Source: a virus
DNA length: 64,000 nt
Direction: 5' to 3' (one strand)
Virus genome (UHGV): UHGV-0091736
Shown here: positions 35,601 through 42,403 of the stretch, piece by piece
Layout: each line of letters starts with the position of its first letter
Position numbering within the stretch: position 1 is the stretch's first letter
Translations under genes and position numbers: made by a program
The notes under the pieces: model-generated
What the model was told of the DNA's origin: nothing
The model's database searches: none
Seen by the model: the letters and a program-made list of their open reading frames with translations, nothing else

Positions 35601-36053
35601 CTATGGATTTACACATTGACCGTTACCGGATTCTACTTCGTTCATGGACTCATCAAAGAGTGTCAACGATGAGCGCATCAGGTGATCGACCGTGATTTGT
35701 TTACCAGTGGTTTCATTTACTAATAGAATAGTTTTACTATCTGATTGCACATGTTCGAAATCATTTACATGTAAAATAATAACTTTAGGTGACTTTTTAC
35801 CAGTGTCATAATTCTCAATCAAATAGGTGCACTGTAAACCGTCAACCGTAGCAGGGGAAAACGTTGCAGCCCTTACGCTACCCAAAGATGATAGCAGGAC
35901 ACCTAACAGGAGAACAACCAGAAAGAAGCCTACAACCATTTTAACTAAGAATTTAATAAACCACATAGCAATCAACCTTTTAGTTAAAGAACGTAAGAGT
36001 AAAGCATATCGGCGACGAATAGCGCCACTGTAGCAACGAATAAACACCGCCAA
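35601..36053 (-). CDS. early membrane-anchored protein
   Basis: 150 aa; hydrophobic segment FLVKMVVGFFLVVLLLGVLLSSL; start may be internal Met. Confidence 0.5.
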   Translation of the reverse strand: MAVFIRCYSGAIRRRYALLLRSLTKRLIAMWFIKFLVKMVVGFFLVVLLLGVLLSSLGSVRAATFSPATVDGLQCTYLIENYDTGKKSPKVIILHVNDFEHVQSDSKTILLVNETTGKQITVDHLMRSSLTLFDESMNEVESGNGQCVNP

Positions 36054-36059
36054 AAATAA

Positions 36060-36323
36060 TCATTCTTCATCATTGCCTTTACCTTCAAAGAGTGATACTC
36101 TAAGCAATTTAATTTCTTCCAGTGACAGAAGAATCCCACGTTGCGCCAGATAATGACCAGCTTTAACATCATCCATAATTAGAGCGACGGCAGGAAATTC
36201 TACCGCATTAATATTATCGCCACCAACAAACAAGATCAGACACTTGTCAGAATTGTCAGTATATGAGAAATCAATATCCCCATAGTTATGAGTAGGGATA
36301 GTGTAACTATGTTCTTTAGCCAT
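36060..36323 (-). CDS. hypothetical early protein
   Basis: 87 aa ORF. Confidence 0.5.
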   Translation of the reverse strand: MAKEHSYTIPTHNYGDIDFSYTDNSDKCLILFVGGDNINAVEFPAVALIMDDVKAGHYLAQRGILLSLEEIKLLRVSLFEGKGNDEE

Positions 36324-36333
36324 GTATTAATCC

Positions 36334-37206
36334 TTACTTATTAGCCTTAATGCAGTTGGCTAGATTAACGTGAACAGTATAAACAGCATTATCAGCGTTA
36401 TTATAAACGGTAGTGGCGATCATCGACTCCTTAACCGGACCATAACTCACTAGATTGGTTACAGCTTTAACGTCTTCATAACGTTGTACAGTACCAAATG
36501 TCACCATATCCGCATCATTATCAGTGCGCTTAAGCACCAAATCATTGTTAGGCTGATTATCTAGTGTTTTAGACTGAAAGAGAACGCCTTCATTTGTTAC
36601 GTTGCTAAACTTCATTTTTAAGACAATAGTATTGCCGTCACTATCCGCACCGTTGCAAATCATCCAACCTTTATTGATGGAACTAGAGAAGACACTAGCC
36701 GCATCAGTTGCAGGAGCAGGACTAGCAACAGCCTTATCAGAAAGAGATGTGACCAGTGCACTAACACCGATCGCTGCAACCAGTGCATAACTTGCCAGAT
36801 TAACAGACTTCATAATCTTACTTGCAACAGTAGGCTTGATTGGCTGTTTCTTGTTTTTCTTGTTCCATGCTTCAACCATGACAGACAAGCGGGATAATTC
36901 AGCTTTCACATCACGGCATGACTCAGGCCAATCTTTCTGATTCCAGCTATCTAAATTTGCTTGAATGTAGCAATTAATAGCGTCCTGCATATCGGTAAAA
37001 CCGTTCTCTTTGAACGTGCTTTCATCTTCACACTGTAAAGCGTTCGCAGTAGAGTTAATGATCAAGCAAGCCAGCATTACAGAGTTTTTGAATCCTTTAC
37101 GTGCACTTTCGTTTTCCATCCACGCATCAGGACTACCAACGGTTAAGCCTAAAGATGAAAGGTTTTCGTTTGCTTTGTTCAAGTGGTTAATTGCTACTTT
37201 AGACAT
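36334..37206 (-). CDS. early protein with central transmembrane helix
   Basis: 290 aa; TM VNLASYALVAAIGVSALVTSL; first gene after strong sigma70-like promoter; SD AAGGAA. Confidence 0.55.
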   Translation of the reverse strand: MSKVAINHLNKANENLSSLGLTVGSPDAWMENESARKGFKNSVMLACLIINSTANALQCEDESTFKENGFTDMQDAINCYIQANLDSWNQKDWPESCRDVKAELSRLSVMVEAWNKKNKKQPIKPTVASKIMKSVNLASYALVAAIGVSALVTSLSDKAVASPAPATDAASVFSSSINKGWMICNGADSDGNTIVLKMKFSNVTNEGVLFQSKTLDNQPNNDLVLKRTDNDADMVTFGTVQRYEDVKAVTNLVSYGPVKESMIATTVYNNADNAVYTVHVNLANCIKANK

Positions 37207-37250
37207 TTGATATTCCTTATGGTTGATGAAAACTACAAACTACAATCGCA

Positions 37251-37278
37251 ACTATATAATAAAGGAAAAGGCTGTCAA
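37251..37278 (-). promoter_or_regulatory. sigma70-type early promoter (leftward)
   Basis: minus-strand TTGACA, 16-nt spacer, TATAGT; about 45 nt upstream of ATG at 37206. Confidence 0.6.
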
Positions 37279-37421
37279 CCATTTATTTTCTAACTTTCCT
37301 ATAACTTACTGAAAACTAAAGGAATTTAATTTACTAAACTTTCCATACTCAGAGAATCAGCTTACTGGATATTGTTACTTTATAACACTAATCCTACGGG
37401 TAACAGACCAACAGACCAGGG

Positions 37422-37852
37422 CAAACGGGGAACACACAACCGCAGGATAGACCACGGGGAAACATAGCCAGATAGTGCGGTAGTAATATACCACTTAAAT
37501 AATTAGTTAACTATTAATAGCATTACTCAAACATCAAAGACCATTCGCTACGCTCATGCACGCTGAAAAAGAAAAGAATAAAAAGAATATAATAACCATC
37601 AAACATAATCTTTCCACTTAATTAATACATATATCATTATTGCACTCATAATAACAACTATTGAAACTATTTACACTCAAACTATGGGGGATGGGATGGT
37701 TACTATACGGTATTATTAGACCTGTTATTATCACGCCTTAACAGAGTCTAGCCTTTCATCCACTCAGTAAAGGGGAACTAAATAAACGGGTAGGTAATGT
37801 AATAGATGACATATACGGGGAAAGAATAACGGGGAGTAGGCACGGGGAAGGT
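37422..37852. repeat. ACGGGGAA direct-repeat copies in divergent intergenic region
   Basis: AACGGGGAAC 37422, CACGGGGAAA 37452, TACGGGGAAA 37813, AACGGGGAGT 37827, CACGGGGAAG 37840. Confidence 0.55.
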
Positions 37853-38000
37853 TAGAACGTGGGAGGAGGTGTAAAGGCATTGCCAATAACCCTTTTTTAA
37901 ATGAGGACTCCCCCTTTTTAGGAATTCGTCGCAGAGCGCCTAGCCCCACTCGGTCAAATCAGAATTTTAAACTCTTATATATAAGGTTGAAAGAGAACTT

Positions 38001-38165
38001 ATGTGGAAAATTAAGTTAATCATTAAGCAATTCAAATGTGATCATGAGTACTATCGGATACGCAAAGCTTACGGGGATGAAAGAGTTCACTCCCTTTATA
38101 AGTCCACTTGGAGATGTAGTGAATGTGGTAAGCTTAAGCACAGCACATGGATGGATAGGCCTTAA
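38001..38165 (+). CDS. small zinc-ribbon protein (below track cutoff)
   Basis: 54 aa MWKIKLIIKQFKCDHEYY...RCSECGKLKH; alternative to track ORF 38038-38241. Confidence 0.3.
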   Translation: MWKIKLIIKQFKCDHEYYRIRKAYGDERVHSLYKSTWRCSECGKLKHSTWMDRP

Positions 38166-38375
38166 CGTGACATGGCCTTTATGGGGGTGCCTTAATGTGA
38201 AGTCCCTTTTATGTTTTAACTTTTATCAGAGGGATGTATGACTGAAGATGAATATGGTAGCTTCTCTGAAGAAGACTACGAAAATGAATACAGGTATACT
38301 CACGGGTGTTAATGTGAGGTGGCCTTTACGGGTTAGATAGCCATCAAAGATGACGATATGACTAGCCCTTTATAC
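38161..38375 (+). promoter_or_regulatory. four copies of a 25-nt promoter-like repeat
   Basis: CTTAACGTGACATGGCCTTTATGGG 38161; CTTAATGTGAAGTCCCTTTTATG 38191; GTTAATGTGAGGTGGCCTTTACGGG 38308; ATATGACTAGCCCTTTATAC 38356. Confidence 0.45.
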
Positions 38376-38395
38376 TTTACTCAGAGGACAAAAGT

Positions 38396-38506
38396 ATGGG
38401 ATGGTTCCTGTTGGTTTTAATTCTTTTTACCACTGTTCCTATTGTTGCTGTGTTTGGTTGCATAGCCGCTGACTTATTAGGAATAAAGAAAGGAGATGAT
38501 TTATGA
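38396..38506 (+). CDS. small hydrophobic single-helix peptide
   Basis: 36 aa MGWFLLVLILFTTVPIVAVFGCIAADLL...; SD GAGGA; ATGA overlap with next gene. Confidence 0.35.
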   Translation: MGWFLLVLILFTTVPIVAVFGCIAADLLGIKKGDDL

Positions 38507-38859
38507 GGTTGGATTTAAGAGGTTGTACTAGGTCAGTTATATTGTTCAGAGGTTATGCTATCAAGATTCCTACTTTTAAATCTTGGAAGCTTTTCTTAAA
38601 AGGGATTCTTGCTAATCTACAAGAGAGACATTTCTCTGAGATGAAAGACCCCAACCTTTGTCCTGTAGTCTTCTCTGATAAGTTAGGTTTCTTAGTAATA
38701 ATGAAGAGGTGTAAAGAGGTTGAGCACATAGGATTGTGGATGGCAGAGATTCACACCTTGAAAGGTTCCCTTCCTAAAGAATTTTACCTGTCAGATCTTA
38801 AGCCAGAAAATTATGGATACCTAGGCGGGCGGTTGGTTAAATTAGATTATGGAGATTGA
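38503..38859 (+). CDS. minimal protein-kinase-like protein (T7 gp0.7-like catalytic motifs)
   Basis: 118 aa; YAIKIPTFK (VAIK-like), DLKPEN catalytic loop, KLDYGD (DFG-like); strong SD AAAGGAGA. Confidence 0.45.
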   Translation: MRLDLRGCTRSVILFRGYAIKIPTFKSWKLFLKGILANLQERHFSEMKDPNLCPVVFSDKLGFLVIMKRCKEVEHIGLWMAEIHTLKGSLPKEFYLSDLKPENYGYLGGRLVKLDYGD

Positions 38860-39083
38860 TCATGAATTTAATACTAGACTTTTTATCAGAGTTGGTGCCT
38901 CGGTTCAGAACAGAAACTTGTGCCTTTGTTAAGATATCCCCTGAAGAATTAGAATGCATCGGTCGTCTGGTTGACTTGGATGATGATGAAGAATTTGATG
39001 CAACGATGGAAGTTAGTAGCCTAGGATGGTTATTCTTCCGAGCGTTCACCACTATCAAACCACACACTTATAAGGAATATTAA
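38856..39083 (+). CDS. hypothetical protein
   Basis: 75 aa acidic ORF. Confidence 0.45.
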   Translation: MIMNLILDFLSELVPRFRTETCAFVKISPEELECIGRLVDLDDDEEFDATMEVSSLGWLFFRAFTTIKPHTYKEY

Positions 39084-39086
39084 TTT

Positions 39087-39488
39087 ATGTTAGACTTAAT
39101 CCACACTACTCGCCCTAATTCTAAAACTAAAACACAACCATCTACTCTGGAAGTAGTTGAATATGAATCTACTAAACATGACCACCTCCCTGACTATGCT
39201 CGTGCAATGATTGAGATGATTGAAGAAGCTGAATATGAAATGCTCCATGATTACATTACCTCCAAAGATGAATGGCATCGTGATGTTCGAATAGAAGAGG
39301 ATGGTACAGAAACAATTACGTGGATTCACAAGAGTGAGCTAGTAGACGACGCACTGCGAGACTACGAAAAATTTTTGGTCGACGGCTCTATTCTTTTAGA
39401 GGAAGGGAAGGGTGCAGAACTTCCGTGGGAAGGCGAGACGATTGCTCTTGGTAAGATGTTTAACCTGTCCGTTGGTGATTGTAAGTAA
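39087..39488 (+). CDS. hypothetical protein
   Basis: 133 aa acidic ORF; terminator downstream. Confidence 0.5.
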   Translation: MLDLIHTTRPNSKTKTQPSTLEVVEYESTKHDHLPDYARAMIEMIEEAEYEMLHDYITSKDEWHRDVRIEEDGTETITWIHKSELVDDALRDYEKFLVDGSILLEEGKGAELPWEGETIALGKMFNLSVGDCK

Positions 39489-39493
39489 TATTT

Positions 39494-39516
39494 GCCTCCG
39501 TTGGGAGGCTTTTTGT
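39494..39516 (+). terminator. rho-independent terminator
   Basis: GCCTCCgttgGGAGGC followed by TTTTTGTGTT. Confidence 0.6.
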
Positions 39517-39544
39517 GTTGTTGATAATGTAGAAGGAGTATAAA

Positions 39545-40018
39545 ATGTTTGGAGAAAACGGAGAACTCACGCCTGCACAGGTAGCTGAGATTACAGGAAG
39601 ATTACCCGGAGTAACGGAAGAACTTGAAGGCCGTGGTATGAACCCAAGCAATGGGAAGTTTCAAAAGGGGAATAAATTCGGACGACCCAAAGGTAGTAGA
39701 GGTAAACTGACACAATTAATGTTGGACCGTGTTGCTGCAAGTCATTTGTCTCCTGATGAAGTGTTAATTCAAATTTACGAAGATCCTAATATTCCACCTG
39801 ATCTTAGATTCAAGGCTGCATCAAAAGTTGCAGATCTGGTATATCCTAAGGCGGCCTCCGTTGAAGTTAAGATTGAGGAAGAGAATGTAATCAACGAAGA
39901 ATCATTGAATGCACAAATCAAGGACTTCTTGACTGGAGCACTTGGTATCGACGTTATGCCTCCAGAAGAAGACAACTCTGAGGACGCTGAAAAGGGGGAG
40001 GAAGCGGACGAGAGTTAA
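39545..40018 (+). CDS. putative small terminase subunit (positional call)
   Basis: 157 aa; basic GRPKGSRG segment, acidic C-terminus; immediately upstream of large terminase; SD AGGAGT. Confidence 0.35.
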   Translation: MFGENGELTPAQVAEITGRLPGVTEELEGRGMNPSNGKFQKGNKFGRPKGSRGKLTQLMLDRVAASHLSPDEVLIQIYEDPNIPPDLRFKAASKVADLVYPKAASVEVKIEEENVINEESLNAQIKDFLTGALGIDVMPPEEDNSEDAEKGEEADES

Positions 40019-40087
40019 GTAAAGGAAAGAAGGGGAGGTTCTTTGACGAAGGGACTTTCCCTTTTCTATTTTTAAACTGGAGGAAGT

Positions 40088-40699
40088 ATGTCACTAGATA
40101 AACAAATTTATGAAGCTCTAACTGGTAACAATCTTAGTGTAGATGAAAAGAAAGCACTATTGAATATGTTGAAAGAGCGTGACCAATGGAGGAAGTATAA
40201 TAGGATTTTGTCTTTCAAGGCGTATGACTTCCAAAAGAAATTTTATGCAGCAGGATTGAAGCATAGGTTCAGGTTTCTCTGTGCGGCTAACCGAGTTGGG
40301 AAAAGTTACAGTGAAGCGTACGAATTCGCATGCCACGTTACCGGAAGATATCCAACATGGTGGACCGGTCATAAGTTTAAGAGGCCAATACTTGCGTGGG
40401 CTGTAGGGATTACAGGGGACTCAACAAGGAAAGTATTGCAAAAAGAATTATTTGGTACACCAATTGGAAAGGACACTAATCTGCTAGGTACTGGAGTTAT
40501 TCCACGAGATGCAATAGTAATAGATACTATAGAAAGGGATGGTAATAAGCTACAGATAGTACAGATTAAGCACCAGAATGAAAGGGGTGAGTTTGATGGA
40601 TTAAGTACGTTAGAATTTCGATCAACACAACAGGGTGAACATACACTGATGGGTGCTACTGTTGATTATATATGGCTGGATGAAGAGGATTGTATATAA
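40088..40699 (+). CDS. terminase large subunit, 5' exon (ATPase Walker A/B)
   Basis: Walker A AANRVGKS; Walker B YIWLDEE; ORF stops 5 codons after DEE. Confidence 0.8.
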   Translation: MSLDKQIYEALTGNNLSVDEKKALLNMLKERDQWRKYNRILSFKAYDFQKKFYAAGLKHRFRFLCAANRVGKSYSEAYEFACHVTGRYPTWWTGHKFKRPILAWAVGITGDSTRKVLQKELFGTPIGKDTNLLGTGVIPRDAIVIDTIERDGNKLQIVQIKHQNERGEFDGLSTLEFRSTQQGEHTLMGATVDYIWLDEEDCI

Positions 40700-41479
40700 C
40701 ATAGCTAGAAGTGTTGGTCCTCTATAAACTCGGTGAATTGCTGGAACCTCTGACCCTTAAGTGGAAGACAATCAGCAGCGAAGATAATGTATAACTTACT
40801 CATGATACATTATAACGTTCAACGACTATCGAAAGCATAGCCCGTATGGGTGAAGAAGCAAGTAGAGTAGATACCAAGTGGTATCGAAGTGCCGAGCAAA
40901 ACTAAGGAGTGATACATTGGGTAGACCTAACAAATCATTAGATTCAACCAAAACATGTTCAGTGTGCTCTGTAACAAAAGACATAGAATCTTTTGCAATA
41001 AGAACAAGAGCAATATCCACTGGAGAGGTTAGAATCTACCGTAAGTCTCAATGCAAAGAGTGCATGGCTGAGATGAGAAGGGATTGGGGTAAGAATAATC
41101 CAGATAAGATTCGTGAGAATAATAATTCTCCAAATAAGAGAGCTTGCGATAATGCAAGACGGGCTGGATTAGAAACTGCTTCTATTATCAGAGATGATGA
41201 GTATAATAAATTTGTTATGGAAGAAATGTATGAACTTCGAAATCTTAGAACAAAGGAAACTGGATTTCAATGGCATGTAGATCACATAATCCCTTTAAAA
41301 GGTAATAACGTATGTGGTTTTCATGTCTGGTATAACTTGCAGGTAGTTCCTGCTGTTTTCAACCTATCTAAGAGTAATAGTTTTGATGATATAGTCTGCT
41401 CTGCATGGAAACATGCAGCTGGAGAAATCCGGGATGAGATTAACGATCTTGTCTGAACAACACGCCATATGAGTCTATG
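40691..41479 (+). mobile_element. putative group I-type intron splitting the large terminase gene; carries HNH ORF
   Basis: ATPase motifs resume at AIFAQCV...TATPENG in 41477 ORF; no SD before exon 2; insert has AAACTCGGTGAA block shared with the polymerase and helicase insertions. Confidence 0.6.
40878..41456 (+). CDS. HNH homing endonuclease (intron-encoded; start may be TTG at 40917)
   Basis: Zn-finger CSVCS...CKEC plus HNH core [38 protein letters not shown]. Confidence 0.7.
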
Positions 41480-42403
41480 GCTATATTCGCACAGTGCGTC
41501 ACACGTACACTCACAACTAAAGGTCTAGTTACAATTACAGCTACACCAGAGAACGGTTTAACTGAACTGGTAGATAAATTTATGAAAGGTGAAGGGGATG
41601 AGAACACAGGTTCTCTATATTTCCAGAATGCTTCTTGGTGGGATGCTCATGCAGACCTAGGTGGACATATCACTGACCAAGATATAAAAGATATGACTGA
41701 AGGTATTCCAGCGTGGCAGTTAGAGATGCGTTCGAAAGGTATGCCATTGTTAGGAAGTGGTTTGATATATGATGTATCGGATGACACAATTAAATGTGAA
41801 CCATTCGAAATTCCTGATACGTGGAAACGTGTCTGTGCAATTGATATTGGTATTGATCACCCAACTGCTGCTGTTTGGACAGCTTACGATGCAAACACGG
41901 ATACTGTCTATGTTTACGACTCATATAAAGAAGGTGGCTTTACTCCAGTGTATCATGCTCCAGCTATTAATGGTCGTGGTCAGTGGATTCCTGTCATCCT
42001 ACCGCATGATGCGGACAATATTGAGAAAGGTAGTGGATCATCTGTTGCTCAATTCTATAAGAATGCAGGAGTTAATGTACAGAGTGAGACCTTCTACAAC
42101 AAAATTGGAATGGATGGTAAAAAGAACTTCTTTGTAGAACCCGGAATCACAGATATCCGAGAAAGAATGATGAGTGGACGCTTTAAAATCTTTAACACAG
42201 CTGCTAACGCTAAGCTATTCGAAGAGAAAGCTAGATATCACCGCAAGGTTGGTAAGATTATTAAAGAACATGATGACTTAATGGATGCAATGCGCTATTC
42301 AGCGTGCTCTGTTACACATCGTGGTCGCTCTAAGCATGACGTTAGCTACGGAAGTGCTTCTCTGTATGAGGCAAACGTAAGCAGATGGAATCAGAGTTAC
42401 TAA
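41477..42403 (+). CDS. terminase large subunit, 3' exon (ATPase motif III and nuclease domain)
   Basis: TATPENG coupling motif; CAIDIGIDHPTAAVWTAYD...VYVYDSY nuclease-type acidic motifs. Confidence 0.8.
   Translation: MAIFAQCVTRTLTTKGLVTITATPENGLTELVDKFMKGEGDENTGSLYFQNASWWDAHADLGGHITDQDIKDMTEGIPAWQLEMRSKGMPLLGSGLIYDVSDDTIKCEPFEIPDTWKRVCAIDIGIDHPTAAVWTAYDANTDTVYVYDSYKEGGFTPVYHAPAINGRGQWIPVILPHDADNIEKGSGSSVAQFYKNAGVNVQSETFYNKIGMDGKKNFFVEPGITDIRERMMSGRFKIFNTAANAKLFEEKARYHRKVGKIIKEHDDLMDAMRYSACSVTHRGRSKHDVSYGSASLYEANVSRWNQSY

Follow-up and report, generated by a model that had tools for sequence, protein, structure and literature searches.

Four short repeats at positions 38161-38375 of the window, by which we mean the whole 64,000-nucleotide stretch of UHGV virus genome UHGV-0091736 analyzed here, may constitute a cosB- or pac-like recognition array for the phage small terminase; this is the best-supported mechanism we can offer, and we hold it tentatively. 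We infer further that the binder is gp6, the product of a nearby gene, and that its binding directs cutting and packaging. The original prediction took the repeats to be either stacked promoters or binding sites for a phage regulator. Binding sites as a class still provide the best explanation, and comparison with relatives speaks for a unique cis site tied to a genome end and to a small-terminase gene, not for a general transcription regulator. A megablast search with positions 36000-42000 returned 127 phage records, the top matches (92-93% identity) including Escherichia phages phiEc_1, EK5, and EC.W2-6 and likewise NJ01, SGF2, and MN03, and by this similarity the window is a phiEco32-like podophage (Gordonclarkvirinae, Kuravirus). 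The four copies of the repeat are the following:

38160-38185, + strand: copy 1, CCTTAACGTGACATGGCCTTTATGGG, with the 24-nucleotide core TTAACGTGACATGGCCTTTATGGG at 38162-38185
38190-38215, + strand: copy 2, CCTTAATGTGAAGTCCCTTTTATGTT, with the 24-nucleotide core TTAATGTGAAGTCCCTTTTATGTT at 38192-38215, 67% identity to copy 1
38308-38332, + strand: copy 3, GTTAATGTGAGGTGGCCTTTACGGG, with the 24-nucleotide core TTAATGTGAGGTGGCCTTTACGGG at 38309-38332, 83% identity to copy 1
38357-38375, + strand: copy 4, TATGACTAGCCCTTTATAC, weaker, with only the 3' two-thirds in common (TGACTAGCCCTTTAT at 38359-38373)

The predicted set of four related repeats is therefore borne out at its coordinates, as three in-register 24-nucleotide copies and a weaker fourth, and a motif search across the whole window finds the repeats at this one place in 64 kb. 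The degenerate pattern TTAAYGTGANNTSSCYTTTAYG, allowing at most two mismatches, matches only three times in the window, both strands searched (copies 1-3), with zero matches expected from 100 shuffles. The pattern [AG]TGA-N2-6-CC[CT]?TTTA[CT] matches exactly the four copies, all on the + strand, compared to a shuffle mean of 1.2 matches per window that are scattered. An array that is unique by comparison with shuffled sequence is more than a product of chance.

The repeats recur in the same region of 14 further Gordonclarkvirinae phages (Kuravirus, Suseptimavirus, and Nieuwekanaalvirus), each of which has 3-6 copies, all on the + strand and all between coding sequence 1 (CDS1) and the gene-4 homolog. 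Position counts over 57 distinct copies from 15 loci, anchored on CCTTTA as the sequence used to collect the copies, give the consensus ccTTAAyRTGAnnTssCCTTTAYg, with RTGA-nnTss-CCTTTAY as its conserved part. TGA is kept in 45-50 of the 57 copies, and the collecting sequence CCTTTA recurs in each phage. Copy 1 is invariant in phiEco32, TH06, and 1-6af. The spacing of Kuravirus copies takes values of 14, 27, 30, 39, and 44 nucleotides, with copies chained at 14 nucleotides in LAMP and spaced by 27-44 nucleotides elsewhere. Open reading frames (ORFs) between the copies have been gained and lost, and small ORFs and a mini-palindrome are inserted at differing places among the phages: the repeat element is conserved while its surroundings are fluid. 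Absence from relatives, which would have spoken against the original prediction, is clearly not what we find, and the conservation extends across families. The genome papers of SU10, SU7, YF01, and Privateer do not mention the array.

The array lies just inside the left genome end (~413-680 in phiEco32 coordinates). The features of the window that relate it to the genome ends and to the terminase genes are listed here, with a caret marking the cut:

37251-37278, - strand: sigma-70 promoter TTGACA-16-TATAGT, directed leftward at the right genome end and opening the main early region
37736-37760, + strand: element-like copy across the left boundary of the terminal repeat, CCTTAACAGAGTCT^AGCCTTTCATC, with CCTTAAC and CCTTT at element spacing
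~37750-37941, + strand: direct terminal repeat (DTR, ~192-193 bp), present as a single copy in a permuted or junction-type assembly
39545-40018, + strand: gp6 homolog, 157 amino acids, putative small terminase (TerS) of PaP3/NV1 type
40088-42403, + strand: large terminase (TerL) gene in two exons, exon 1 at 40088-40690 and exon 2 at 41465-42400 plus stop

GC skew turns over at ~38000, with - strand genes to the left and + strand genes to the right. Many relatives' records start at position 51 of query 37700-38520, which is window position 37750, and position 1 of phiEco32 and SU10 is AGCCTTTCTC; from these starts we conclude that the window was assembled across the DTR, for which a length of 193 bp is documented in the phiEco32-like group (PMC4281155, PMC9965538). 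The left DTR boundary reads ...CAGAGTCT^AGCCTTTCATCC and the right one ...GCGCCT^AGCCCCACTCGG. Both contain ...CT^AGCC, with CAG(A/T)G or CAGAGCG before it, and CT^AGCC, which is kept in relatives, is a candidate terminase cleavage motif. The likeness between the two boundaries covers 37741-37760 and 37930-37952 (CAGAGTCT^AGCCTTTCATCCACTCAG and CAGAGCGCCT^AGCCCCACTCGG).

The array is 220-430 bp inside the left DTR, upstream of terS-terL, and the left boundary itself falls within an element-like copy, CCTTAACAGAGTCT^AGCCTTTC, that has GAG in place of TGA. The composite CCTTAAY-N7-10-CCTTT occurs only three times in the window, both strands counted (37736, 38160, and 38190), and relatives retain GCCTTAA and CAG(A/T)G to the left of the cut at a variable distance. 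The mature left end of Kuravirus starts AGCCTTTC and has a CCTTT core in common with the PaP3 cos site GGCCCCTTTCC, so that an sCC(C)TTT core is common to the element, the left end, and PaP3 cos. The main early sigma-70 promoters are at the right end, pointing inward, and the promoter at 37251-37278 has its SU10 homolog in the promoter "upstream of CDS125". Phage DNA is usually packaged and ejected in last-in, first-out order. With early promoters at the right end, that end would be the first to be ejected and the last to be packaged, which by general phage biology would have packaging begin from the left, the end with the array, terS, and terL. A separate feature of this region is the enrichment of ACGGG(G/T) on the + strand near the DTR (37396-38328), where 1.1 kb holds 10 of its 25 + strand occurrences (0.43 expected) and no - strand occurrence; four of the ten are within the DTR, with three more on either side of it.

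The proposed binder, gp6, resembles small terminases in profile comparisons: a profile of 27 gp6 homologs matches the PDB small terminases 7JOQ (E=1.1e-3) and 6W7T, which is PaP3 TerS (E=0.15), and the YF01 paper likewise identified gp6 as the small terminase by profile hidden Markov model (PMC9965538). Searches of gp6 returned no Pfam match, and its PHROGs matches were all to families without an assigned function. Specific binding of the cos 20-mer GCCGGCCCCTTTCCGCGTTA is documented for PaP3 TerS (PMC7672466), and this 20-mer is at position 1 of the PaP3 record.

Anchoring the comparison on the gp6 homolog extends it to more distant relatives. GAP52, SeKF_80, PKM.Lu.22.1, and Privateer (Grimontviridae) have TATGAnnTssCATC arrays directly upstream of the gp6 homolog, LAh_9 (Lahexavirus) has an array of TATGAnnnGGCATG just upstream of it, and Vibrio phage Vp_R1 has TAATGATAGnn, again just upstream of that gene, with six overlapping 27-nucleotide family copies at an exact 11-bp spacing (~8 11-nucleotide units when read by eye) and copies of AATGAYAGGGCAT in addition. 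With a period of 11 bp the sites all face the same side of the DNA helix, an indication that a protein binds the DNA. Across Gordonclarkvirinae, Grimontviridae, and Lahexavirus, the array keeps to the terS side of the genome-end region. The 5' half of the motif, (w)ATGA-nnT-ss-C, is common to the families, and the 3' half is lineage-specific: phages with gp6 91-99% identical have ...CCTTTAY, and those with gp6 at ~50% or less have CATC or GGCAT, a co-variation that is coarse and to be expected of any protein that diverges. The complete 7-11 genome (89.9 kb) has three occurrences of the strict motif, each on the + strand, within 1302-1569 and upstream of its gp6 homolog, gene 1. The motif is found only at ~1302-1600 in that whole genome and is absent from the other late promoters, which argues for a single-locus cis site rather than a promoter module. 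The densest cluster of the generic 5'-half pattern is also at the array locus, in the window and in 7-11 alike.

As expected of a cosB- or pac-like array, the copies form a unique oriented cluster close to a genome end and to the genes for terminase, the neighboring genes include one for a putative small terminase, and the motif and gp6 differ together from lineage to lineage. Oligomeric gp6, as a TerS of PaP3/NV1 type, would bind the array on concatemeric DNA and bring the large terminase into place for cutting at the DTR boundaries (...CT^AGCC...), upon which rightward packaging would begin; in function the array would correspond to lambda cosB or a pac site. Lambda cosB has R1-R3 sites bound by gpNu1, and P1 pac has hexamer arrays. 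With lambda cosB and with pac and cos sites generally, the present array has in common short oriented repeats no more than a few hundred bp inside the cut site and adjacent to terS-terL; the small-terminase sites SPP1 pacL/pacR and HK97 cos also entered the comparison. The difference from lambda is that a 193-bp DTR requires two cuts and duplication rather than one cos cut, that 220-430 bp and a gene, CDS1, separate the nearer cut from the array, that the array's sequences are unrelated to the R sites, and that binding is here a prediction. In the case of PaP3 cos, the likeness is that the proposed binder gp6 is homologous to the TerS that binds its cos DNA (PMC7672466).

The SRL of T7 (CCTAAAG repeats, T7 171-360) is a positional analog, in that T7 too is a podophage with a short DTR and dense direct repeats just inside the left repeat, and has sigma-70 promoters nearby too. 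A role for SRL in concatemer processing has long been suspected. There is, however, no sequence homology, the T7 repeats abut the DTR and have units of 7-8 nucleotides, and the function of SRL is itself unproven. Packaging signals have been defined in only a few model phages, and beyond T7 and T3 in scarcely any with short DTRs, and Kuravirus-like phages are common therapy candidates. The motif array could be a target for studying DNA recognition by the PaP3-type nonameric small terminase, and could be useful for predicting the genome ends of new isolates and for engineering packaging or transduction vectors.

Several observations weigh against a terminase-recognition array. The CCTTT core in common with PaP3 cos is only 5-7 nucleotides long and may be chance, and the left ends of PaP3 and LUZ24 have no comparable array, with none next to cos in PaP3. 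The AlphaFold model of gp6 is poor (pLDDT 66), and Foldseek gave no support. Copy spacing in Kuravirus (14-44 nucleotides) and in 7-11 (26-27 nucleotides) is out of helical phase, and the Kuravirus array is ~1.2 kb from terS, with genes 4-5 between. The array is part of an early transcription unit, and its copies adjoin stop codons and ribosome-binding sites, as would fit a role in mRNA too. Control of transcription is equally compatible with the arrangement in Grimontviridae, where a late-type promoter follows each array, and the SE131 and LAh_6 records, examined for the physical ends of Grimontviridae relatives, have no end annotation. Separately, we considered the LUZ24-type nick consensus (TACT/RTGMC) and rejected it because the TACT part is absent.

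The most credible alternative to terminase recognition, though a less likely one, is that the repeats are operator-type sites for another DNA-binding protein, of phage or host, that acts in control of the left-end operon or first late promoter, in replication initiation, or in DNA entry, and not in packaging. The evidence at the level of DNA (uniqueness, orientation, and the 11-bp period in Vp_R1) is the same for both readings. The relatives that have late-type promoters would suit control of transcription: in 7-11, SeKF_80, PKM.Lu.22.1, Privateer, GAP52, and LAh_9, downstream of each array come a T-rich stretch, CAGTGTAA, and then a promoter of late type, GTAAnn-N16-nCTA, relative to which the arrays of these Grimontviridae and LAh_9 sit at about -40 to -140. 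The late-promoter consensus of 7-11 is GTAAtg-16-aCTA, and a late promoter has been mapped before gene 1 (PMC8948821), which by our own reading corresponds to the motif at 1637. However, no gp36 or sigma-70 promoter follows the Kuravirus array, with 1.15 kb between it and the nearest late promoter downstream, P6, and the remaining late promoters of 7-11 are without the motif.

A replication role for such a protein could draw on the one-orientation direct repeats next to a T-rich stretch, which resemble iteron-plus-AT-rich origins, and on GAP52 (locus L017), which has five perfect DnaA boxes (TTATCCACA) in 190 bp (443-631), ~900 bp upstream of its array. The spacing of the array is nevertheless irregular, except for the 11 bp of Vp_R1, and 26-30 nucleotides is atypical for iterons; the DnaA-box cluster is GAP52-specific, being found in none of the other relatives examined and nowhere in the window. 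No initiator gene was identified, and we know of no initiator protein in these phages. CDS1, which is Zn-ribbon-like and immediately upstream of the array in Kuravirus, could itself bind DNA, but Grimontviridae have kept the array and not CDS1. A combination of the terminase and operator readings is also conceivable but doubtful: in phiEco32- and 7-11-type prolate podophages, the element may be dual-purpose, with the terminase or a partner marking the start of packaging and also controlling the adjacent first late promoter or the operon that encodes terminase. If true, late transcription would be tied to the maturation of DNA, and this group of DTR phages would have its first defined packaging signal.

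The repeats could instead act in the early mRNA, as intercistronic sites at which an RNA-binding protein, nuclease, or ribosome sets the stability or translation of the left-end genes, a role we consider unlikely. It concerns the following features in and around the array:

38001-38165, + strand: CDS1, 54 amino acids, CxH...CxxC, Zn-ribbon-like, homolog of phi32_1 and SU10_01
38238-38312, + strand: small ORF of 24 codons, MTEDEYGSFSEEDYENEYRYTHGC, with an AGAGGGA ribosome-binding site, between copies 2 and 3
38340-38354, + strand: imperfect mini-palindrome GCCATCAAAGATGAC, an insertion relative to phiEco32
38396-38506, + strand: hydrophobic, membrane-like ORF of 36 amino acids, downstream of copy 4 and present in O18-011 too

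Small ORFs are thus interleaved with the repeats, as had been noted. The location upstream of rightward early genes likewise agrees with the SU10 paper, in which the left-end CDS1-3 are early (PMC4281155); we take the temporal class of genes 1-5 (early) from the summary of that paper (PMC4281155). Every copy points in the direction of transcription and is placed between ORFs. The preceding ORF has its stop codon inside the repeat at copies 1 and 3 (the TAA of CDS1 and the TAA of the 24-codon ORF, respectively), and a TCAGAGG ribosome-binding site comes within 15-25 nucleotides after copies 2 and 4: the 3' side of copy 2 has a T-rich stretch and then TCAGAGGGA, the ribosome-binding site of the 24-codon ORF, and the 3' side of copy 4 has a T-rich stretch and then TTTACTCAGAGGA, the ribosome-binding site of the next ORF. 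The CCCUUU of the last copy can pair, by eye, with the AGAGGG of the ribosome-binding site and would sequester it. The predicted fold of 38150-38400 is, however, neither stable nor unusual (minimum free energy z = -0.5 versus shuffles), the array has no Rfam match at E<=1, and the reading frame of the copies is not constant, for example at the 14-nucleotide spacing of LAh-type arrays and LAMP. An exact 11-bp period, as in Vp_R1, has no obvious meaning in RNA. In addition, the first 7-11 array (1302) lies between an annotated leftward sigma-70 promoter (1001-1029, - strand) and the first rightward late-type promoter (1369), and is therefore probably not transcribed on the + strand.

It is improbable that the repeats are functionless scars of recombination or slippage in a hypervariable region of small-ORF gain and loss. 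Close relatives do differ in the number and arrangement of copies, insertions of ORFs and of a 15-18-bp mini-palindrome are found at copies or between them, and for many relatives the blastn match breaks off exactly where CDS1 ends (query position 466). Yet TGA, T, and the CC(T)TT core are kept across genera, and the 5' half across families with ~50% protein identity; neutral scars would not persist in this way, with the same positions kept in the same orientation and at the same place. The mini-palindrome is itself of note. In its 15-18-bp form, GTCATCAAAGATGAC, it is also found within copy 2 of TH06 and before a copy in O18-011. As an insertion it takes different array positions in different phages (window 38340-38354, locus L008 at ~2005-2022, locus L009 at ~2233-2250), as if it were mobile or recurrently duplicated.

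Least probable of all is that the repeats are stacked promoters, either weak variants of the tAATGTAtA promoter of the phiEco32 sigma factor gp36 or sigma-70 promoters, that drive the rightward genes. The downstream genes do need a promoter, and the left end of T7 has tandem early promoters A1-A3. The copies had been predicted to contain a TAATGTGA-like core similar to TAATGTATA, and TAATGTGA is indeed present in two of the four, giving TAATGT in common with the gp36 consensus in the same phage group; the others have TAACGTGA and ATATGACT, and the likeness is at chance level. Six gp36 promoters have been mapped in phiEco32, before genes 6, 13, 26, 40, 58, and 68 and not in the gene 1-5 interval (PMC8948821; see also PMC12276001). 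The invariant AATGTA of these promoters, centered near -11.5 with transcription starting 6-8 nucleotides downstream, before middle or late genes, is in none of the four copies and nowhere in 38100-38400. The closest copy is two mismatches from TAATGTATA, and 124 sites per strand in the window come at least as close (~175 in shuffles, so near-matches are below the shuffle mean), and sites with at most one mismatch number 19 in the window versus 21.8 expected. The promoter-like half is also the less conserved of the two halves in relatives: the position at which gp36 promoters require G is G in 13 and A in 42 of the 57 copies, and most relatives have AAYATGA there, with AACATGA, GGTATGA, and TTATGAT also seen. 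Nothing in gp36 or sigma-70 promoters corresponds to the conserved half (CCTTTAY or CATC).

For sigma-70, a consensus scan of 37000-40200 gave no -35/-10 pair (TTGACA-like and TATAAT-like hexamers 16-18 bp apart) within 38161-38375, with total matches at the shuffle expectation, and a candidate sigma-70 promoter is already present upstream of CDS1 (SU10 table S2 and the 4E8 annotation). The sequence thus already weakly refutes stacked promoters, and corrects a tempting mis-annotation of the repeats as phage-sigma promoters. Other candidates examined by eye, namely sigma-32 (CCCCATNT), sigma-54 (TGGCAC-N5-TTGC), a CRP half-site (TGTGA), a PhoB box, IHF, and boxA (GCTCTTTA), fit only some copies or one lineage and were rejected. 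A coding repeat, NV(T/K/R)(W/S)(P/L)L in one frame of copies 1-3, was rejected because the 14-, 27-, and 44-nucleotide spacings of relatives break the frame.

Two further features lie between the array and the terminase genes:

39494-39517, + strand: terminator-like hairpin GCCTCCGTTGGGAGGC, then a T run
39525-39533, + strand: TAATGTAGA, homolog of the gp36-dependent late promoter P6 before gene 6

The hairpin probably ends the left-end early transcription unit. SU10 table S2 lists the P6-type promoter as "gttgaTAATGTAGAaggag" (PMC4281155). CDS1 matches phrog_7696, of unknown function, and has no Pfam match, and a search of IMG/VR with it returned phiEco32 itself alone. The 24-codon ORF is present in phiEco32, TH06, and 1-6af and absent in SU10, Paul, and 172-1. 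Relative to the window, phiEco32 (L001) has a 66-bp insertion at 502-567 that duplicates the start of a small acidic, Tyr-rich ORF, such that ATGAC(T/A)GAAGATGAAT occurs twice; this is where the annotated phi32_2 and phi32_3 overlap.

The large terminase gene is interrupted by a 774-bp group I intron (40691-41464), on either side of which phiEco32 TerL aligns by tblastn, amino acids 1-201 at 99.5% and 202-513 at 98.4%. The Rfam model RF00028 matches 40672-41418 (E=2.7e-9, 45 bits, slightly below the gathering score of 50). The intron contains an ORF (40878-41456) that is HNH/endonuclease VII-like (phrog_1035), and an exact gp36 consensus, TAATGTATA, at 40785-40793 within the intron, ~85 nucleotides upstream of the ORF, suggests that the endonuclease may have its own late promoter. 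Late promoters specific to intron ORFs are known in T4.

Between the two arrays of Grimontviridae (1369-1500 in 7-11, locus L021, and the equivalents in L018, L019, L020, and L025), a late-type promoter GTAAGA-N16-ACTA is followed by a conserved stretch that is purine-rich and then pyrimidine-rich, without an ORF (AAGTTCATGGGCGAAGGGGAAAGGGG...CCTCTTCTTATC), and that may represent a late non-coding RNA or else a structured region of the DNA. A similar composition is seen in the Kuravirus DTR (GGGGAAAG...CTCCCCCTTTTT, inverted repeat I4).

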